Source: a virus
Taxonomy: Duplodnaviria; Heunggongvirae; Uroviricota; Caudoviricetes
Strand: one strand, 5' to 3'
Virus record (IMG/VR): IMGVR_UViG_2713896771_000020
Coordinates: 1 to 16,979 of that record
DNA: 16,979 bases
The stretch's first letter is position 1. Every line of letters starts with the position of its first letter. Positions 1 to 15,590 of the stretch are shown here, in pieces. Made by a program: the position numbers and the translations under genes. A model generated the notes under the pieces. That model had not been told where the DNA came from, did not search any database, and worked only from the letters and a program-made list of their open reading frames with translations.

Positions 1-309
1 CTAGTACTCAGGAAGATTTTCTAAATTATCCTTAGATGTACCATTGGCTCTAGTTGTAATGTAATCAATGTTGTTAACACGGTCTTTAACCACTTTTTGA
101 CCCTTCTTCCACTTACCGTCATCACCTATGAAAATGGTGTAAAACGTATAACCACTATCGATCTTATTCACTACCCACTGCCGTGTTTCTGATACCCCTC
201 CCCCAACAGTATCCCCCTTATCAACATGCACATACACATGGGTAATGTGAGTGTGCTTGTCGTTATATCGGACTTTAGAAATAAGGTAATCAGCCCATTT
301 ATCAATCAT
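1..309 (-). CDS. Hypothetical cargo protein, possibly DUF3892-like; ATG at 307-309 preferred, alternative TTG start at 361-363
   Basis: Complete ORF with stop at 1-3. GGTGG Shine-Dalgarno-like sequence just upstream of the ATG at 309. Motifs HTHITHV ... SGYTFYT ... NLENLPEY recalled as resembling DUF3892, tentative. About 35% GC by eye, well below the neighbouring terL. Confidence 0.45.
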   Translation of the reverse strand: MIDKWADYLISKVRYNDKHTHITHVYVHVDKGDTVGGGVSETRQWVVNKIDSGYTFYTIFIGDDGKWKKGQKVVKDRVNNIDYITTRANGTSKDNLENLPEY

Positions 310-458
310 ATTCCACCATAAGTTTGAACAGGAAAAGTCCTGCAATACTCTTATAAACAACAAAGCAGCGGCTTCCTACCCCACGATGGTAATATAGTGA
401 TCTAGAGCAATTTATATTTCCGATAACATCGACACAACTCCACATTTACACTCTATTC

Positions 459-5638: not shown

Positions 5639-6796
5639 TTAATCGTCGTCCTGTGGCAGTTCCAGAATCTTGATCGCGTTCGAATCCACCACGCCACCGC
5701 CTAAATATTTCTGCGTGAAAATTTTGATGAAGCCCGGCTCTGTGAGGTTGTCCGGTCTGGTGCGAACACCTGTTTCGTGATCAACAATGTAGTAACCGCG
5801 TTTGAAGTCACCCAGGGCAATAACGTTATCAGGCATAAACTCCAGATATTCGACCGGAAGGCCCAGCAACGTATCAGGATCACCCGCCTGTAAACGGTCG
5901 CGCCAGATATAATCACCGTTCGCGTTCTTCACCTTCTGGAGTTTTGCCGCCGTCGTGGAGTTAACCACCCAGACCGCGTTTTTGCGGTATTTTTTACGTA
6001 ATGCAAATTTCAGGTCGATCAGCGGGTCCGCAGATGTCCACGCCAGAGATTCGGAAGGTTTAATTACCTGTAACGTACCAAAATCACGCTCTTTGTCGTT
6101 CTTCTCTGCACGGGGTACGGATAAAAAGCCTTTTGCTTTTTTGTCACCATCGCCCACAACCAGATCGCTTTCTTCGGTTTCCGTGAAGGTGTCGCCAATC
6201 TCACCCGTCAGCCATGAAAGGATGTCCACATCGGAAAAATCCACGATTTCCTGTGTGGTGCGCGGGTACGCATAGACCGGATACAGCTTAATGCTCACCT
6301 CGTTAATCTGCGGGGTGCTGGTCTGTTCGCGTGCCTTACCCTCTTCACCGTGGTTAACGGTCGCACCGCCAGCGGAAACAAGCTGCTTAAACTCGTTGCT
6401 GCTGATTTTCTTCACGGTACAGATGCGGCGCATGGTGGATTCATCCGCCAGCATTCGCATGATTTCGGTGTTCAGTTCAGGGATAACGGTATAACCACCA
6501 TCAGCGGGAACGCCTGTACTTAATGCGCGGGTTTCACCTGTCAGAATGTAGTTGCGGAGTTCTGCGGGGTCAGTGGTCTGACTGCTTTTACCTGGCTTGC
6601 TGCGCTCTTCGTCTGCAATGGCTTCAAGGCGGGAAATGTCTTTATCGAGGGATTCAGCTTTAGCGCGTAATTCGTCAAATGTTGCGCCCTCAGCATCGTT
6701 AAGACTGCGGTTTTCTTTTTCCGCGTTCTCCAGCATGTCGCGCATCTGATTTTTAATGGCGGTTTTCTGCTGGCGTAATTCGATTATTCTCGGCAT
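5639..6796 (-). CDS. Major capsid protein, HK97 fold, with N-terminal scaffold-like (delta) domain
   Basis: 385-aa ORF. N-terminal ~100 aa is charged and coiled-coil-like (ELRQQKTAIKNQMRDMLENAEKENRSL...), followed by a capsid-like body. Adjacent prohead protease. Confidence 0.88.
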   Translation of the reverse strand: MPRIIELRQQKTAIKNQMRDMLENAEKENRSLNDAEGATFDELRAKAESLDKDISRLEAIADEERSKPGKSSQTTDPAELRNYILTGETRALSTGVPADGGYTVIPELNTEIMRMLADESTMRRICTVKKISSNEFKQLVSAGGATVNHGEEGKAREQTSTPQINEVSIKLYPVYAYPRTTQEIVDFSDVDILSWLTGEIGDTFTETEESDLVVGDGDKKAKGFLSVPRAEKNDKERDFGTLQVIKPSESLAWTSADPLIDLKFALRKKYRKNAVWVVNSTTAAKLQKVKNANGDYIWRDRLQAGDPDTLLGLPVEYLEFMPDNVIALGDFKRGYYIVDHETGVRTRPDNLTEPGFIKIFTQKYLGGGVVDSNAIKILELPQDDD

Positions 6797-7050
6797 AAAA
6801 AAAGTCCTGGGGTTAAGTAAGGAACTCCAGGACGCGGCAAAAACTCAACCGTTTTTCATAAGGAAATCAGCAATCGCACCGATCGTTTTCCCGCCTGGTA
6901 ATGAATATTGGCGAGAACATTAACAGGCGGAAAAGTGGCCCCAGCGTCCTGGCACCACGGGCGAGAATAATCATGATTCAGTTCGGGTAAAATATGCCGA
7001 TCCTGTCAGTGAACAACGTGGAACAACCGCGAACAAATAATTTACAAAAA
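6797..7050 (-). promoter_or_regulatory. Leader and promoter region of the capsid/packaging operon
   Basis: 254-bp non-coding gap. Three 10-bp-phased TTGTTC repeats (7011-7036) lie upstream of a candidate -10 TATTTT (~6989-6994). Hairpin 6804-6833 followed by T7 abuts the capsid ATG. Confidence 0.5.
7011..7036 (-). repeat. Three direct repeats GAACAA (TTGTTC on the minus strand) at exact 10-bp spacing
   Basis: Plus strand reads GAACAAcgtgGAACAAccgcGAACAA at 7011-7016, 7021-7026 and 7031-7036. Confidence 0.9.
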
Positions 7051-7055
7051 ATGAC

Positions 7056-7083
7056 AAAAAGCCGGATTGCTCCGGCTGTATGC
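7056..7083 (-). terminator. Rho-independent terminator
   Basis: Stem GCCGGA/TCCGGC (7061-7066 and 7071-7076) with loop TTGC, followed on the minus strand by TTTTTGTCATTTTTT. Near-identical copy at 7408-7434. Confidence 0.75.
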
Positions 7084-7087
7084 GTGC

Positions 7088-7312
7088 TCAGTCCCTGATC
7101 CCTTTCAGAAATTCTATCAATGCATCTATCTGTTCAGGATTTACCGCCAGCATTTCACCGGACAGAGCACATCTCACAAAACCATGCTGATCCTTTTCAA
7201 TCAGTGCGCCCGTCTCCAGGAATGCGCGGTAATCATTGATGCTCATCGTCTCCATGTTGTCAGCATGGTATTTATCACGCTGTTTTAATATCTCATCAAA
7301 TTTCATCGGCAT
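7088..7312 (-). CDS. Hypothetical 74-aa protein in a moron-like cassette
   Basis: ATG at 7310-7312 with AGAGGA Shine-Dalgarno 8 nt upstream (MPMKFDEILKQRDKYH...). Bracketed by two near-identical intrinsic terminators. Confidence 0.55.
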   Translation of the reverse strand: MPMKFDEILKQRDKYHADNMETMSINDYRAFLETGALIEKDQHGFVRCALSGEMLAVNPEQIDALIEFLKGIRD

Positions 7313-7407
7313 TGTTTTTTCCTCTGTTGTGTCTGTTTGTTTCAGATAGTAACTATGCCTGACCGTGACGAAAACCCGGTAATGCGCCATACCGTTTCAA
7401 CTGGTGC

Positions 7408-7434
7408 AAAAAAAGCCGGATTTCTCCGGCTGTG
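7408..7434 (-). terminator. Rho-independent terminator (second copy of the same element)
   Basis: Stem GCCGGA/TCCGGC (7415-7420 and 7425-7430) with loop TTTC, followed on the minus strand by T7. Immediately after the stop of the 7438-7710 gene. Confidence 0.8.
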
Positions 7435-7437
7435 TGA

Positions 7438-7710
7438 TTAGCTGTCCTGGTAATTTCGCCATATTTCATCACCAGCACCATCCATACCCATTTCGGCATA
7501 AGTGCGATCGACCGCCTTTTTCAGGTCTCCGTAATTATCCGGCGGCTCCGGTGGCCTCTGTGCCTTCCTGGAACATTCCAGCCGTCGCATCGTAACCTGA
7601 TGCCGTTCCTTGTCTGTCTCCACCAGCAGCATGACTTCACCCCATCGCGCCGACGCCCTCCGGTAAAAGCCTTTTGCCTCGAGTTCCTCCGCTATGCGGT
7701 CATGTACCAT
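7438..7710 (-). CDS. Hypothetical 90-aa protein
   Basis: ATG at 7708-7710 with GAGGGGG Shine-Dalgarno, just downstream of the ssb stop. The longer ORF-track start overlaps ssb out of frame and is rejected. Confidence 0.5.
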   Translation of the reverse strand: MVHDRIAEELEAKGFYRRASARWGEVMLLVETDKERHQVTMRRLECSRKAQRPPEPPDNYGDLKKAVDRTYAEMGMDGAGDEIWRNYQDS

Positions 7711-7720
7711 CGTCACCCCC

Positions 7721-8131
7721 TCAGAACGGAATATCATCACCGTAGGGGTCATCGTCTCCCGCTGGTGGCTGATTACCCTGTGTGCCTGTGGTTTTGCGTC
7801 TGTTCCCGCCAGGACGTGCCGCACGGGCACTGATTACGCTGTCTGCAATAACCTGATACCCCTGCCGTGTTTCCCCGTTCTGTCCGGTCCACTGGCTTAC
7901 CTGCATCGTGCCGGATACGCTGGCAACATCGCCTTTTTGATGTTTAGCCAGGAAATCGGCCTGTTTGCCAAATGCGATAACCGATAACCATAACGTCGCC
8001 TGTCCGTCATGTGCCTGGCTGCATGGCAACGATACCGCCATACGCGCCAGAGTCATCGGTGTGCCCTTGCTGCTCTGTTTTACCAGCGGGTCGTCCACCA
8101 GGCGCCCGTAAGCTGCAATTTGTGCTGTCAT
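7721..8131 (-). CDS. ssb: Single-stranded DNA-binding protein with acidic C-terminal tip
   Basis: 136-aa ORF with SSB-like core (TLWLSVIAFGKQADFLAKHQKGDVASVSGTMQVSQW), Gly-rich linker and C-terminal DDDPYGDDIPF, the conserved SSB tail. GAGGTGG Shine-Dalgarno. Confidence 0.8.
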   Translation of the reverse strand: MTAQIAAYGRLVDDPLVKQSSKGTPMTLARMAVSLPCSQAHDGQATLWLSVIAFGKQADFLAKHQKGDVASVSGTMQVSQWTGQNGETRQGYQVIADSVISARAARPGGNRRKTTGTQGNQPPAGDDDPYGDDIPF

Positions 8132-8140
8132 ATTGCCACC

Positions 8141-8446
8141 TCAGTGAAGCGATCCGGCGTTGTTCTTTTTCATCTCTTCCATCATTTTTTCAGTGAGCAT
8201 TACGCACTGAAAACCCATGTTTTTGATGTCTACGGGTTTCATGCCTTTGTCAGTGGATATCACAGGCAGAATATCCTGATACACATCGCGGTCAGGGTAA
8301 CTAAGCACACAAAGCGCCCATGATGCCACGGGTGAGGATCCTTCGTCTGTTTCAACCCACCAGCCTGGTGTAGCTGCGCTTATTTGCAGAATCGTGATCA
8401 GTCCGTTGTGCTTGTAAAGTTTTTCACCAAATTTTGGTTCGCTCAT
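8141..8446 (-). CDS. Hypothetical 101-aa protein
   Basis: ATG 8444-8446 with GGAGAGGTGG Shine-Dalgarno. ATGA overlap with the upstream gene. No recognisable motif. Confidence 0.5.
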   Translation of the reverse strand: MSEPKFGEKLYKHNGLITILQISAATPGWWVETDEGSSPVASWALCVLSYPDRDVYQDILPVISTDKGMKPVDIKNMGFQCVMLTEKMMEEMKKNNAGSLH

Positions 8447-8694
8447 GATTCCACCTCTCCGGTTTTAACGTTGATGGTTGTTACCTGTTCCGCTTCGGCA
8501 ATCTCCCGTTCTGTCAGCGTGGCAAAGTTTGCCGCCGCCGTGGTCATGAATGCGCTTATCAGGTCGGGATGTTCCTTCGCGTATCCTTCCCGCGTGTGGC
8601 GGTCTATCGTTCTGATTGCCACCTTTAAGGTGTGCTCAGTCATGTCTAACGCTTTATATTTTGGCTCTGTTCTGTCTCTGCGTTTTTGGGTCAT
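8443..8694 (-). CDS. Hypothetical 83-aa protein (start uncertain: 8694, 8724 or 8643)
   Basis: In-frame ORF translationally coupled to the downstream gene. Its upstream region overlaps the iteron array. Confidence 0.4.
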   Translation of the reverse strand: MTQKRRDRTEPKYKALDMTEHTLKVAIRTIDRHTREGYAKEHPDLISAFMTTAAANFATLTEREIAEAEQVTTINVKTGEVES

Positions 8695-8703
8695 TTCTCG
8701 CAA

Positions 8704-8897
8704 CCTCTCACTTTTTCGCCTCACTTTTTCAAGCGTCTCACTTCGTCGCAGCTGGGATTTTCGGTTTTTCTATGTGTGTGTTTCATAAGTATTTTTTTAC
8801 CCCTCACTTTTGAGGATGTATACAGGTCGAAAAGTGAGGGAGAGCAGGCTAATTTTGGCCCTCTTTCTATCCACCTCGCTTTTGCTCCTCACTTTTA
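8704..8897. repeat. Iteron array, putative replication origin of the island
   Basis: CTCACTTTT-type repeats at 8707, 8720, 8737 (degenerate), 8803, 8874 (degenerate) and 8888, plus one inverted copy AAAAGTGAG at 8830-8838. Adjacent AT-rich tract 8783-8800. Lies immediately 3' of the replicase gene. Confidence 0.65.
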
Positions 8898-10295
8898 TAG
8901 CGGCGCTACATCATCCCCATCGATACGAATAACCCCATCTTTTTCCAGCTTGTACAGCCAGCGCCGGAAGTTTTTCATTTCATACCCCAGCTTTTTCATG
9001 TCATCACGTAACAGCGGGATCGTGCACTTGTCGCCGTTCTGTGTGCGTGAACGGATGCACCCCCATAAAGCGGTATGGTTTTCCGTCTTGTTCCCGGCCT
9101 CCTCGATGCGCTCCAGTTCAACAGGAGGGCGCGGATCATCCACCACCACCAGCGACGTGATTAATTCACCGTCAGCGTCGGTAAAAAGCTCCACCACGCG
9201 TAAGTCATATGCGGCTTCTTTGAGTTCCTCCGCGTCCTTCATTTTGGTGCATGAGATAACCAGCGCTTCGCTTCCTGCGTCCTCCCTGCGTATCCGGTAT
9301 TCAGCATCCAGCGAAGCACGAAATGCACTGGAACCGCGCGCGCCTTTCGTCTCATCCTTGCCGGAATGGTGAACCACCAGCACCGTGGCCCCTGTGCGTC
9401 GTTTCAGTTCGTCACAACCACGGATAAACGCCCCCATATCACGGGAATCATTTTCATCATTCCCACCAAAGCAACGCGCCAGCGTATCCAGAATAATCAT
9501 GCGAACAGGTTTACCCGTTTCCCGCTCCACCTGACGGGCAGCGATAACCATTTCATCAACATCAAGCGGGGCAGCCGGAAAGATGGGGCGGTTTACCAGA
9601 TACAGATTTTTCACCTGCTCATCGTGCACAACCTCCCAGGCTTTTACACGACGCGGAACACCTATACCGCCTTCACCAACCACATAGAGAACCGCACCAT
9701 GCGCAACCCTGCGGCCTCCCCACTGGCGACCAGTGGCAACATGGCACGCCCACGATCCGGCAAGGAATGATTTATAGGACCCGCTAGCCCCGTATATGCT
9801 GCATAGCGATACCGCCGGAATAATCCCCTTAACCACGTAATCCAGTTGCGTGTCGTATCCGGTAGATCCAACGCTCATCGGTAGCGTGGTTTTTCGCTGG
9901 TGGTTTTTTTCTTCCGCCGGCTCTTTCCCACGCACCCGTTCCAGGTATTCGCGCCAGTTCTCCCGCATATGGCTGTGCATCCCTTCGGGGTAATAATTCG
10001 CATCAGTTACACCCGCCGCCGCCAGCTTGTGCGCAATGGCATTAATATTTGATGGCCTGATGTGGCCTGCCTTGTACAGCCGGACACAATAGCGCCCCTC
10101 GTCGATGATTCTCAGGTCTGCCAGTTCATCCAGTTGATCATCAGCCAGCACAACGGGAGGCACATTATCGCCAGCCAGTCGCCCGTCCTGTTCCTGCCAC
10201 TGTTTCGCATGTGCCCAGGCATCACTACCCGCAAAAATAATGACTTCGGTCATCTTGTCGTAAGGCTGTTTTTTTAAGTTCGGTGCGCTTTTCAT
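8895..10295 (-). CDS. Primase/replicase-type replication initiator with RecA-like (RepA/AAA_25-type) ATPase domain
   Basis: 466-aa ORF. P-loop-like YGASGSYKS, Walker B MIILDTL, and VVHHSGKD motif typical of RepA-like helicase loaders. ATGA coupling to the upstream gene. Confidence 0.75.
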   Translation of the reverse strand: MKSAPNLKKQPYDKMTEVIIFAGSDAWAHAKQWQEQDGRLAGDNVPPVVLADDQLDELADLRIIDEGRYCVRLYKAGHIRPSNINAIAHKLAAAGVTDANYYPEGMHSHMRENWREYLERVRGKEPAEEKNHQRKTTLPMSVGSTGYDTQLDYVVKGIIPAVSLCSIYGASGSYKSFLAGSWACHVATGRQWGGRRVAHGAVLYVVGEGGIGVPRRVKAWEVVHDEQVKNLYLVNRPIFPAAPLDVDEMVIAARQVERETGKPVRMIILDTLARCFGGNDENDSRDMGAFIRGCDELKRRTGATVLVVHHSGKDETKGARGSSAFRASLDAEYRIRREDAGSEALVISCTKMKDAEELKEAAYDLRVVELFTDADGELITSLVVVDDPRPPVELERIEEAGNKTENHTALWGCIRSRTQNGDKCTIPLLRDDMKKLGYEMKNFRRWLYKLEKDGVIRIDGDDVAPL

Positions 10296-10591
10296 TTCTT
10301 GCCCCTGAATACGTTAAGCATCTTTTTTATTTCCTGAATATTGGCGCGTGCTTTCTCCCTGCTGGTTGGTTTACTGCGGGGCGCTGCCTGTACCAGAGAA
10401 AAATCACGCCGGAACTGATAAACAGGCATCACGCAGTCATATTCGTAGCCTTCACGGCGGTAGGTAATGCGTCGCTCTTCTACACCTTTAATCGTTACGG
10501 TGCCGCCGTACTGGTCGCGGTAAATATCGCCGCGCGTAAATTTAGGGTGAGTGTTGCCACTGGCAGTTAAGCCAGAATATTTAAGTTTCAT
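10292..10591 (-). CDS. Hypothetical 99-aa protein
   Basis: ATG 10589-10591; intact ORF in the same operon directly upstream of the replicase. Confidence 0.5.
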   Translation of the reverse strand: MKLKYSGLTASGNTHPKFTRGDIYRDQYGGTVTIKGVEERRITYRREGYEYDCVMPVYQFRRDFSLVQAAPRSKPTSREKARANIQEIKKMLNVFRGKK

Positions 10592-11689: not shown

Positions 11690-11885
11690 AGCTACCTCGA
11701 TACTCTCGTTATCGTTGGTGGTTAGAAGCCCCGTTACTGCTCCTACAGTGCGGGGTTTCGTCGTTTCTGCACCTTGCATTAACAAGGTGTAAGTAACTTT
11801 ATTTATAGGTGGCTTACATGTCAATGCTTTTATGTAAGACTTTTTATGTGTATATTGTCTTACACTTTCATTGAGAGGATTACAG
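11690..11885. promoter_or_regulatory. Divergent promoter/operator switch region
   Basis: Minus-strand promoter: perfect -35 TTGACA (11819-11824), 17-nt spacer, -10 TAAAGT (11796-11801). Plus-strand candidate -10 TATATT (11851-11856). Inverted repeats CTTACAT/ATGTAAG (11814-11820 and 11833-11839), TGTAAGAC/GTCTTACA (11834-11841 and 11858-11865), CACCTTG-N6-CAAGGTG (11770-11789). Confidence 0.6.
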
Positions 11886-12691: not shown

Positions 12692-12880
12692 TTAATGAAC
12701 TGCCTTGCAGCTATCCTTCCAGGCCAGAACCTCGGATAAAGACCAGCCAACGGAACGACCGCCAAGTTTACGACGTGATGGGAATTGTCCGGCCTTTTCC
12801 AGGCGGTAGCGGCATGAGCGGCTAAGGCCTGTTAGCTTTTCGCATTCTTTTTCACGTATAAACCGATCAGTGCTTAACAC
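12692..12880 (-). CDS. alpA: AlpA-family (excisionase-like) transcriptional regulator
   Basis: 62-aa protein; core LTGLSRSCRYRLEKAGQFPSRRKLGGRSVGWSLSEVLAWKDS matches the AlpA/Xis-like winged-helix signature. GTG start with GGGGG Shine-Dalgarno. Immediately downstream of int in the same orientation. Confidence 0.85.
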   Translation of the reverse strand: MLSTDRFIREKECEKLTGLSRSCRYRLEKAGQFPSRRKLGGRSVGWSLSEVLAWKDSCKAVH

Positions 12881-13254: not shown

Positions 13255-14484
13255 TTATTTTCTTCTGGCTACTGGTAGCGTGGTTACGTTTTCATGTGTT
13301 CCCGCCAGTATCCCTAACCGCTCCATCCACATATCCAGCACATTGCGTTTAGCATCCAGATAACGGGAATGATTATAAACTCGCTGCATTCCTGGCATCT
13401 GGTGGCCTGTAAGCTGCTCCACGACATGCGGATCAACGCCTAAATCGTTCAGCATGGTTGTAAAGGTGCGCCGGATGTCATGCAGTGACCAGTGAGGATG
13501 ATTAAGCCTCCTGTGCGCTAATCTTCCATACTGCGATACGCTGGCCTCCTGTTTCACTTCCCCCAGCAATAAGCCCGTGTGCCTGTTCTGCTCCACCAGC
13601 TGCGTGACGAACGGCAGGATCGCTTCCGGTATGGGCCGGAATATTGCGACCTTCGTTTTGCTGTGCTCCTTCGGAACGGTCCATAGCATTTCCGTAAAAT
13701 CCCACTCCCCGATCTCCGATAGCCTCAGTTCTACCGTCCTGGCTCCGAAGACAATCAGGAGGCGGATTAACGCGACGTAGTAAGGGGAAAATATTTTTTT
13801 GTCCAGTGCCTGCAATAATTCGCCAAGTTCTTTGTTACTTAAGACACGTTCGCTTATATCCGGTTTTTTCCCAACGTCCGCCACGTTCAGATCGTCCAGA
13901 ACGTTGCTGATTGCATAGCGCCGCCTACGGCAGAACTTAAGCGCCTGTTTGCACGCCTGTAGCACGAATCCGGCAGTAACAGGCGTTCGCTTTGCCACCT
14001 GGTCAAAACAGGCCAGCCAGTGCCGTAGCTCGCATTTATCCAGCGGCATAGCACCAATCTGCTGTATTACGTGATTATTAAGTCGCCTTTTCAGGGCGAT
14101 ATAATCCACGCGGTTTTCCTTTACGTAATACTCAAGCCAGTAGGTGAGCGCATCGCCAACCGTTACGGGCTTTAACGCTTCCTGTACGGTGTAATTCATC
14201 TCATGACGTGGATTTTTCCCCTCAGCCAGCCATGTGCGACACTGTGCGGCTTTTTCCCTGGCTGCTTTCAGGCTCAGATCAGGATAACTTCCCAGCTTAA
14301 TGCGTTCGGGTCGTGTCTCCCTTCCCGTTCCGGCCCTGTATGTGAAATACCAGGTCAATTTCCCTGATGTTAAATATTTCACGCTCAGGTTTCCGCCATC
14401 ACTATAAAACGTGTTTTTCTCCGCTGGCTTACCATGAAGTTTCCTTAGCAAGGTATCGCTCAGTTTGTTCATTGCTCTGCTCAC
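13255..14484 (-). CDS. int: Tyrosine site-specific integrase (P4-like family)
   Basis: 409-aa ORF; C-terminal catalytic region with HDIRRTF ... LTGHQ ... RVYNHSRY (R, H-x-x-R, Y). GTG start 14482-14484 with AGAGGGGG Shine-Dalgarno; alternative ATG at 14472. Adjacent to the insertion junction. Confidence 0.9.
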   Translation of the reverse strand: MSRAMNKLSDTLLRKLHGKPAEKNTFYSDGGNLSVKYLTSGKLTWYFTYRAGTGRETRPERIKLGSYPDLSLKAAREKAAQCRTWLAEGKNPRHEMNYTVQEALKPVTVGDALTYWLEYYVKENRVDYIALKRRLNNHVIQQIGAMPLDKCELRHWLACFDQVAKRTPVTAGFVLQACKQALKFCRRRRYAISNVLDDLNVADVGKKPDISERVLSNKELGELLQALDKKIFSPYYVALIRLLIVFGARTVELRLSEIGEWDFTEMLWTVPKEHSKTKVAIFRPIPEAILPFVTQLVEQNRHTGLLLGEVKQEASVSQYGRLAHRRLNHPHWSLHDIRRTFTTMLNDLGVDPHVVEQLTGHQMPGMQRVYNHSRYLDAKRNVLDMWMERLGILAGTHENVTTLPVARRK

Positions 14485-14660: not shown

Positions 14661-15566
14661 GCTGTTATTCTTAACCCGCTGGTGCAACACATGGTCCGCT
14701 GGCGAGTGCCGCGTGTACTGGCGGTGTCGATTTTGATGACCATCATCGTGATGGCGATGGTGTTGCTATTAGCTTATCTGGGTTCCGCGCTCAACGAGTT
14801 GACGCGGACGTTACCGCAATATCGCAACTCTATTATGACGCCGCTGCAAGCTCTTGAGCCGTTGTTGCAACGCGTAGGGATTGACGTCTCAGTTGACCAG
14901 CTGGCGCATTACATTGATCCGAACGCGGCGATGACGTTGCTCACCAACTTATTGACGCAGTTATCTAATGCCATGTCATCAATATTTTTATTGCTGCTGA
15001 CGGTGCTGTTTATGCTGCTCGAAGTGCCACAATTGCCCGGAAAATTTCAGCAAATGATGGCGCGTCCGGTTGAAGGGATGGCGGCGATTCAACGTGCAAT
15101 TGACAGTGTTTCTCATTATCTGGTGCTGAAAACAGCCATCAGCATCATCACCGGCCTGGTCGCCTGGGCGATGCTCGCCGCACTCGATGTTCGCTTCGCT
15201 TTTGTCTGGGGATTGCTGGCCTTTGCGCTTAATTACATCCCTAATATTGGTTCAGTTCTCGCGGCAATCCCCCCTATCGCTCAGGTACTGGTGTTTAATG
15301 GCTTCTACGAAGCGTTGCTGGTGCTGGCGGGATATCTGCTGATTAATCTGGTCTTCGGCAATATTCTGGAGCCGCGCATCATGGGACGTGGGCTGGGGCT
15401 TTCCACATTGGTGGTATTTTTGTCGTTGATTTTTTGGGGATGGTTGTTAGGACCGGTGGGTATGCTGCTTTCCGTGCCGTTAACAATTATTGTCAAAATT
15501 GCGCTTGAACAAACAGCGGGAGGTCAAAGCATCGCCGTTCTGTTAAGCGATCTCAATAAAGAGTGG
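14661..15566 (+). pseudogene. tqsA: 5'-truncated tqsA (AI-2 exporter, AI-2E family), disrupted by the island
   Basis: Translation from 14661 reads [22 protein letters not shown]... through the conserved AI-2E transporter body. An in-frame stop at 14652-14654 and AT-rich island DNA lie immediately upstream, so the N-terminal transmembrane segment and promoter are absent. 3' limit set by the expected stop near 15564, which is TGG in this sequence. Confidence 0.7.
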
Positions 15567-15584
15567 CGGCCTCCGCAGAGGCCG
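15567..15584. terminator. Convergent intergenic hairpin between tqsA and pntB
   Basis: 7-bp stem CGGCCTC/GAGGCCG with loop CGCA, between the expected tqsA end and the pntB stop at 15591. No strong U-run. Confidence 0.4.
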
Positions 15585-15590
15585 TCAGGG

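Follow-up and report, generated by a model that had tools for sequence, protein, structure and literature searches.

Between the replication genes and the capsid gene of the DNA analyzed here (the window, 16,979 nt in full) lies a small gene, orf74, that is bracketed by two nearly identical terminator-like hairpins. This raises the question of what kind of unit the gene and its terminators form, and of how such a unit is gained, kept, or lost. A sequence-only reading of the window had proposed an independently acquired transcription unit, a moron, which might encode a phage-interference or host-modulating factor.

Judged by its gene content, the window is E. coli chromosome with a satellite of the capsid-forming PICI (cf-PICI) type that is close to EcCIEDL933. 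Pfam matches were obtained for an integrase, AlpA, replication genes, an HK97-type capsid protein, a protease, and a portal, as well as for the further members of the cf-PICI gene set, i.e., head-tail adaptors, HNH, TerS, and TerL. The ORF list and the Pfam scan revealed no tail or lysis genes in the window, and no tRNA genes were found in it. All island genes are located on the minus strand (Table 1). At the nucleotide level, the window and the O157:H7 copy of the EcCIEDL933 island share 96.5-98.7% identity in the genes for portal, protease, and capsid. The site of orf74 was confirmed to lie between the replication module, with SSB and PerC (7438-8131) on this side, and the HK97-type capsid gene. 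The PF06069 match spans residues 41-129 of a longer listed perC ORF, and the RefSeq annotation of relatives contains the same 273-nt CDS that is given here. In O157, the neighboring perC appears to be pchE (ECs1588) in region Sp7 of strain Sakai (PMC1890555). It has been reported that pchE is a repressor of curli and adhesion (PMC6265319), and a PerC-family protein of a PICI was found to repress LEE1 (PMC11773190).

Table 1. Positions of the island features in the window, in the order of transcription.
Feature	Position (nt)	Strand	Basis and remarks
Integrase	13255-14484	minus	Tyrosine recombinase with Arm DNA-binding domain
AlpA	12692-12880	minus	Pfam; several small genes then follow in transcription order
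DUF4222 protein gene	10292-10591	minus	Pfam
RepA/AAA_25 helicase gene	8895-10295	minus	Pfam; iteron-rich gap next
Two small genes	8443-8724 and 8141-8446	minus	ORF list; between iteron gap and SSB
SSB gene	7721-8131	minus	Pfam
perC-family gene, 90 aa	7438-7710	minus	Pfam PF06069 PerC, E=8e-44; last gene before cassette
Terminator B (upstream copy; perC terminator)	7410-7436; stem 7414-7431, U7 tail 7408-7414	minus	Repeat, hairpin, U-tract
Cassette leader, 97 nt	7313-7409	minus	Alignment of variants, promoter scan
orf74, 74 aa	7088-7312 (ATG side 7312)	minus	phrog_1957, no Pfam
Terminator A (downstream copy)	7056-7082; stem 7060-7077, U5 tail 7056-7060	minus	Repeat, hairpin, U-tract
HK97-type major capsid gene	5639-6796	minus	Pfam PF05065, E=1.5e-61; first of packaging module
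Prohead protease, portal, head completion protein, head-tail connector, HNH, TerS	downstream of capsid gene, in that order	minus	Pfam
TerL	459-2120	minus	Pfam; end of packaging series

Several further features of the island were noted. The gap 3′ of the RepA/AAA_25 helicase gene (8690-8900) contains at least six copies of AAAGTGAG(G/A), one of them inverted, which reach into the start of the next ORF, and it is probably the replication origin of the island. Islands of Klebsiella/Citrobacter and of Phytobacter contain other iterons (GTGAACAC-type and GTGCGGCA-type) at the same place. Beside the integrase end lies a gene for an AI-2E-family transporter (14682-15590, plus strand), and its Pfam match starts only at position 40 of 327, so that the island seems to be inserted in, or to replace, the 5′ end of this gene. 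We take the transporter gene to be tqsA, which adjoins pntB; the listed transporter ORF of 458 aa continues into pntB in antisense orientation and is not real past about residue 300. At the other end, downstream of TerL, a gene for a DUF3892 protein is present (1-363, minus strand). EDL933 has a different hypothetical gene of 93 aa there, indicating that this island end is a second variable accessory slot. The leader of the capsid operon (6797-7055, minus strand) has the same sequence in islands with and without the cassette. It includes three TTGTTC repeats with an exact spacing of 10 bp (about 7012-7040), which resemble a regulator-binding array, and a strong hairpin (6887-6934, -20.6 kcal/mol, z -4.5). 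Another hairpin followed by U7 (6804-6833) abuts the capsid ATG and holds the only AGGA upstream of it. A sigma-70 match of 9/12 or better was not found in the capsid leader.

The terminator pair was characterized by a repeat search, which yielded one two-copy repeat family of 27 nt. The two copies are identical at 25 of 27 positions (93%), and the mismatches are one loop base and one flank base. The duplication had therefore been described correctly in the sequence-only reading, apart from coordinates that were off by 1-2 nt. The hairpin pattern AGCCGGANNNNTCCGGCT has two matches in the window compared with 0.05 expected, and none of 200 shuffled sequences reached two. Both hairpins are oriented for the minus strand, like all island genes, and have a 7-bp stem with five G-C pairs. 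The loops are GAAA in terminator B and GCAA in terminator A, and thus a GNRA tetraloop is kept despite the one-base difference. The hairpin energies are -12.6 and -14.4 kcal/mol, with z values of about -3.3. Terminator B begins 6 nt past the TAA stop codon of perC (7438-7440), and terminator A begins 10 nt past the stop codon of orf74 and has a second U6 run beyond its tail, at 7046-7051 (U5-G-UCA-U6). A G+C-rich hairpin, a U-tract, and a location downstream of a stop codon are the hallmarks of intrinsic (Rho-independent) terminators; both copies have them, and these features identify the two hairpins as canonical predicted minus-strand intrinsic terminators.

Similar sequences were observed elsewhere. 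With the REP consensus of REP/BIME elements, the repeat has only GCCGGAT in common. A search of Rfam revealed no family over the window, and in 6700-7500 only a sub-threshold chance match was obtained. Satellites with a lambda-type capsid have a further terminator copy about 2.3 kb downstream on the transcribed strand (L002, 1728-1748; L005, 663-683), which is identical to the start of copy B at 21 of 21 positions and, in L002, lies between a gene for a 137-aa protein and TerS. This shows that the same terminator sequence is reused at several junctions. An unrelated IMG/VR contig (L094), for which a comparison with the E. coli genomes gave no match, contains an identical hairpin, AAAAAGCCGGATTTCTCCGGCT, twice (5206 and 8261, 3 kb apart), and the two copies share a flank of their own, TGAAAGGACAAAA. 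Such copies could be due to convergence, given how simple the terminator is, or to an element that is spread more widely, and they illustrate that identical terminators can arise or spread outside this system. In many genomes, the RefSeq annotation places a short CDS named "trigger factor", or a pseudogene with a frameshift, over terminator B and the end of perC (corresponding to 7353-7499, minus strand, in the window, 3557-3672 in L003, and 2770-2883 in L028). As this CDS overlaps the terminator hairpin, it is most likely an annotation artefact.

Next to the perC terminator, the unit bracketed by the repeats is a cassette of 354 bp, which directly follows terminator B and consists of the 97-nt leader, the gene, and the intrinsic terminator A. 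Its distribution was analyzed by searching 5426 complete E. coli genomes with positions 6797-7830 as a query. Three kinds of loci were found, namely full-length matches, matches that start exactly at terminator A and are followed by a different packaging module, and matches in two pieces that fall short by about 352 nt. The HK97-type backbone of the window recurs in strain YL3, where perC and the capsid leader are separated by one terminator and nothing else, i.e., the site is empty. In strain 319, the cassette is part of a different satellite, whose morphogenesis genes encode TerS, a decoration protein, and a major capsid protein of the lambda type; the backbone of strain 319 is also present in strain 181.1, with one terminator and an empty site. 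The homology break was at the A/T-run of the terminator in every aligned case. The comparison with cassette-free islands, which the sequence-only reading had recommended, thus yielded exact empty sites with boundaries in the terminator repeat. Like the extra DNA of a moron, the cassette is optional in collinear elements and has sharp ends, and this holds for two backbones.

Both states occur frequently. The cassette interior was found at 592 places in 539 of the 5426 complete genomes, and perC at 873 places in 766 genomes. Among the IMG/VR loci, 16 with an HK97-type backbone have the cassette and 21 lack it, and the respective numbers for the lambda-type backbone are 19 and 16. These frequencies are rough, as the IMG/VR loci were chosen by two variants of the terminator and O157 is overrepresented among the E. 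coli genomes, but clearly both states are common in both backbones despite the sample bias. The cassette-free E. coli islands include ones with intact capsid genes that are 99% identical. Universal presence, which together with co-transcription and a lack of independent promoter activity would have spoken against the moron reading, was therefore not observed; the cassette is absent from about a third to half of the related islands. Some 30-50% of the islands that are otherwise intact do without orf74, which makes it a non-essential accessory gene.

The sequence identities indicate how the cassette moves. Compared with the O157:H7 island, it is identical at 327 of 327 positions, whereas the identities of the flanking genes are 93.8% for perC, 93.4% for ssb, and 98.7% for the capsid gene. 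Among the IMG/VR loci, the identities are 99-100% for the orf74 proteins, 88-100% for the adjacent PerC proteins, and 99-100% for the HK97 capsids. The loop bases of the two terminators form different combinations, and at occupied sites G+T is the commonest, with G+G and T+T also occurring, while empty sites have a single G or a single T in both backbones. All mixes of loop states, together with the jump in identity at terminator B, indicate that crossovers fall inside the repeats. The cassette was found together with at least three kinds of replication genes; that of the window encodes RepA/AAA_25, that of EDL933 a DUF927 protein, and that of OkiPb01697 a protein of the DNA primase family. 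Its G+C content is 0.44 compared with 0.575 for perC/ssb and 0.46-0.49 for the downstream leader, and thus there is a clear difference on one side only.

These patterns show that homologous recombination in the repeats can add, remove, or swap the module, as far as can be read from aligned sequences, and the terminator of 24-27 bp appears to behave as a portable junction for gain, loss, and exchange. The conserved gene order in other genera (see below) suggests that orf74 is old in HK97-type islands, and at least some of the empty HK97-type sites are then probably deletions. For the lambda-type islands, acquisition of the cassette through recombination is probable, with crossovers in the terminator on one side and in perC/ssb on the other.

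The gene itself was as had been read from the sequence, with a good Shine-Dalgarno motif (GAGGA, 7324-7320) 7 nt upstream of its ATG. A longer version of 100 aa from an upstream ATG was rejected, as the phrog_1957 profile begins at its M27, and a plus-strand ORF (7067-7288) was rejected in favor of the 74-aa frame on the minus strand. Among E. coli variants of orf74, dN/dS is 0.09-0.20 with dS of up to 0.37, and these substitution patterns identify orf74 as a real gene that is under purifying selection. A word-indexed protein search with orf74 detected E. coli proteins only. An exhaustive HMMER search revealed relatives of 75-106 aa with identities of about 35-42%, and a profile search resulted in 161 family members in the Enterobacterales (Klebsiella, Citrobacter, Serratia, Raoultella, Enterobacter, Hafnia, Pectobacterium, and others). 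All 161 proteins are annotated as hypothetical, and none has a Pfam domain. The PHROGs match of orf74, phrog_1957, is also annotated as "unknown function", and no significant match was obtained for orf74 in Pfam or NCBIfam. The PADLOC defence models did not match orf74 or three distant homologues at E<=0.1. In a profile search of PDB sequences, a weak partial match to N.BspD6I (E 0.002 over 39 residues) was judged to be a chance match.

Structure prediction and an HMM search of the 74-aa protein had also been recommended, and these yielded a confident model and a large family, but no known fold or Pfam domain. AlphaFold2 with an alignment of 111 sequences predicted two helices, a three-stranded sheet, and a C-terminal helix (pLDDT 92.9, pTM 0.76), and a structure comparison with this model matched no known fold. 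A single-sequence model was poor (pLDDT 57) and was set aside. The protein is acidic, with a net charge of -5 as counted from the sequence. Using tblastn, neither the E. coli orf74 nor a Serratia relative had a match in 50,697 phage genomes, and by this measure the family appears to be satellite-specific. The few "plasmid" matches to orf74 include records of 16-17 kb, which are probably excised satellites. Three of them, CP018459.1 (16,971 bp), NZ_CP038627.1 (15,977 bp), and NZ_CP123539.1 (16,022 bp), have the size of a cf-PICI and encode orf74 homologues; they are listed as "non-mobilizable plasmids" of Klebsiella and Arsenophonus and may be excised circular satellites. A literature search did not yield a mention of orf74, nor did a search of the EcCIEDL933 paper for terms that denote its neighbors (bioRxiv 10.1101/2022.09.08.507074).

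The expression signals of the cassette were analyzed by scanning the region between terminator B and the orf74 ATG (7313-7413). No sigma-70 match of at least 8/12 was detected in scans at 9/12 and 8/12. The best match upstream of orf74 is TTTTCG (7374-7369), a spacer of 17 nt, and TACTAT (7351-7346), i.e., 7/12, and the only 10/12 match on the coding strand of the island is located at 11796-11824. The claim of an independently acquired unit was thus borne out in part, as the cassette is discrete, optional, furnished with its own terminator, and exchanged apart from its flanks, but no promoter of this quality was detected. A block of 43 nt (7317-7359) is unchanged in four cassette variants, although the overall divergence of the cassette is up to 8.9%. 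At the overall divergence rate, the chance of this is about 0.02, and it is far less at the synonymous rate. This indicates that something in the orf74 leader is under constraint; the block includes the candidate -10 element and the ribosome-binding site. No significant structure (z -0.84) and no Rfam match were found for the leader RNA (7290-7413). We infer that the expression of orf74 may be low and may depend on a weak promoter within the 43-nt block and/or on read-through of terminator B.

At least ten genera of enterobacteria (Klebsiella, Serratia, Citrobacter, Phytobacter, Enterobacter, Pectobacterium, Kluyvera, Leclercia, Proteus, and Xenorhabdus) have cf-PICIs in which this slot is occupied by a homologue that is 32-46% identical to orf74. 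Of the 19 informative loci from outside E. coli, 18 have the homologue on the same strand as the HK97-type capsid gene and 0.6-1.65 kb upstream of it; the exception is one locus of Erwinia psidii. In the loci inspected, it is located directly behind the replication gene and the iteron origin. Three other genera were scanned, and the stretch from the replication gene to the homologue contained no terminator-like site, while in two of the three a terminator-like hairpin is present 3′ of the homologue. The lack of a terminator before the gene suggests that in these genera the homologue is probably the tail of an early/replication operon. The interval from the homologue to the capsid operon often contains unrelated genes in the opposite orientation, and these have no matches to defence models.

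The results for Klebsiella-type cf-PICI loci were not uniform, as the homologue is present in 52 of 74 and absent from 22. In one island of this type without the homologue (L116, 3995-5730), the slot contains a 69-aa AlpA-like gene, a gene for an acidic protein of 111 aa, a bidirectional terminator, and two opposite-strand genes (170 and 201 aa), and the presence of other genes indicates that the slot is a general variable region. From these comparisons, the orf74 family would be the usual but optional occupant of a variable slot between the origin and the packaging operon. A foreign insertion peculiar to this island, as had been proposed, is at odds with this distribution, because homologues are habitually found in the same slot in at least ten genera, which is not a pattern of sporadic acquisition.

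With moderate confidence, we regard the orf74 unit as a non-essential, satellite-specific accessory module in a recombination-bounded slot of E. coli PICIs. The module's own terminator duplicates that of perC, and direct repeats of 24-27 bp thus flank the module. Terminator B would end early/perC transcription, and terminator A would shield the packaging operon, which would have to be switched on separately, from orf74 transcription. The dispensability of orf74 and its independence of the replication and packaging types argue against a role in the island's own machinery, and its small size and acidity argue for protein binding over DNA binding; the product may bind a host or phage protein. A role in phage interference, as had been proposed, is unlikely for the helpers tested with EcCIEDL933, because this island has the identical cassette and was reported not to block helper phages or reduce their titres (bioRxiv 10.1101/2022.09.08.507074). 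There was no PADLOC match for orf74. A more far-reaching possibility, which we consider doubtful, is that orf74 is the founder of a satellite-only family with a previously unseen small alpha/beta fold that mediates the interaction of cf-PICIs with the host, helpers, or competing phages, and that the terminator-bounded cassette is a dedicated exchange format between PICI lineages via the shared terminator.

Other explanations have to be weighed against the accessory module. The cassette might be a moron in the classical sense, i.e., an independently acquired unit with a constitutive promoter of its own that is on in the quiescent island and confers a new host trait such as phage exclusion or host modulation. 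The presence/absence polymorphism with sharp ends, the terminator, and a G+C content below that of the upstream genes are in agreement with this, and the weak candidate promoter lies partly in the block that is invariant across variants. In addition, the adjoining perC of the pchE type was reported to be active under non-inducing conditions (PMC6265319), indicating that some transcription reaches the region in the quiescent island. Nevertheless, we consider a classical moron unlikely, because the best promoter match is only 7/12, the occupation of one slot in so many genera does not fit a one-off acquisition, and without a terminator-like site in front of it the gene resembles the tail of an early operon in three genera. 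Furthermore, no defence model was matched, and EcCIEDL933 leaves its helpers unblocked in spite of an identical cassette (bioRxiv 10.1101/2022.09.08.507074).

At the other extreme, orf74 could be a core gene that the satellite requires, for example as a switch of the packaging operon or as a helper of replication, and it would then be co-transcribed with its neighbors, with the terminators being bypassed upon induction. The conserved position between origin and capsid operon in many genera, the lack of a consensus promoter for orf74 as well as for the capsid operon, and the single strand of all island genes would be compatible with this. Yet the gene is absent from about half of the E. coli islands with intact, 99% identical capsid genes and from the 22 Klebsiella-type islands mentioned above, and it is found with unrelated replication and packaging modules and hence is matched to neither, which makes an essential function improbable. 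A bypass of terminators might be mediated by an antiterminator, and complexes of the Pseudomonas AlpA antiterminator with RNA polymerase have been solved. The island AlpA has no detectable link to it; at E<=1, only an "AlpA family phage regulatory protein" (8c3t) was matched among PDB chains, and as no homology is given in the papers, the idea of a processive antiterminator of the Pseudomonas AlpA type was dropped. Lastly, there might be no real cassette at all, the two terminators being similar by convergence and the ORF between them incidental. GC-rich hairpins with a GNRA loop are indeed simple, and the same 22-mer occurs twice in an unrelated viral contig. However, the identity of the two copies reaches past the hairpin into both flanks, the empty sites are exact, and the ORF, which evolves under purifying selection, is a member of a wide family with a confident predicted fold, so that a coincidence can be regarded as extremely improbable.

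Taken together, the orf74 cassette is an optional, swappable accessory gene and not anything radically new. The cf-PICIs are a recently described and actively studied class of satellites, and orf74 sits in their prototype, EcCIEDL933. As a widespread satellite-only family with a fixed slot and optional presence, it is well suited to studies by gene deletion and of protein interactions. The terminator duplication is a concrete example of how satellites reshuffle accessory genes, with the terminator doubling as the homology for precise gain and loss. If orf74 acts on phages or on host regulation, it would be relevant for enterohaemorrhagic E. coli, because the cassette adjoins a gene for a PerC/Pch-type regulator.

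Among the closest known systems is EcCIEDL933, the prototype cf-PICI (bioRxiv 10.1101/2022.09.08.507074), which has the same packaging module as the window, with a nucleotide identity of about 98-99% to the O157:H7 copy. The EDL933 island contains the identical cassette at the same place (327/327 in the O157:H7 copy). The two islands differ in the replication gene, which encodes a RepA/AAA_25 helicase in the window and a DUF927 primase in EDL933, and in the integration site, as the island of the window lies beside the 5′-shortened AI-2E transporter gene and pntB, while that of EDL933 lies between phoQ and roxA.

A likeness to integron cassettes was also considered, as the unit is a promoter-less single ORF with hairpin-forming repeats at its ends and is present or absent as a whole. 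Among the proteins scanned there was no integron-type integrase, the sole integrase seen being the tyrosine recombinase of the island. By eye, the perfect hairpin of 18 nt with its U-tract resembles a terminator rather than attC. With no IntI and no attC-like site by eye, this interpretation was dropped.

In SaPIs, the small gene ppi is located between the replication gene/origin and the packaging operon of the satellite, and orf74 resembles it in position and small size. Ppi is a small protein that acts by binding phage TerS (as summarised in bioRxiv 10.1101/2022.09.08.507074). In contrast to an island with such a function, EcCIEDL933 does not interfere with its helpers (same reference). The cf-PICIs bring their own terminase and capsid, and thus there is no obvious need for interference of the Ppi type.

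The morons of lambdoid and HK97-like phages, described by Hendrix and colleagues, are extra DNA between genes that are adjacent in relatives, and they have their own terminator, a deviant G+C content, and are dispensable. The cassette is similar in that it is dispensable extra DNA between neighboring genes, with its own intrinsic terminator, while its G+C content differs clearly from the neighbors on one side only. In contrast to a moron, no promoter of 8/12 or better was recognised upstream of its gene, its carrier is a satellite and not a phage, its family occurs regularly in one slot across genera, and its two terminator copies are recombination handles. In this last respect, it is reminiscent of the boundary or linker sequences of lambdoid phages, which in the model of modular evolution are short conserved sequences at junctions where recombination reassorts modules. 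Here as well, a short conserved junction sequence is common to otherwise different elements. In contrast to the lambdoid linkers, however, the junction is an intrinsic terminator of a working type and stands in tandem around one gene, permitting its precise gain and loss.
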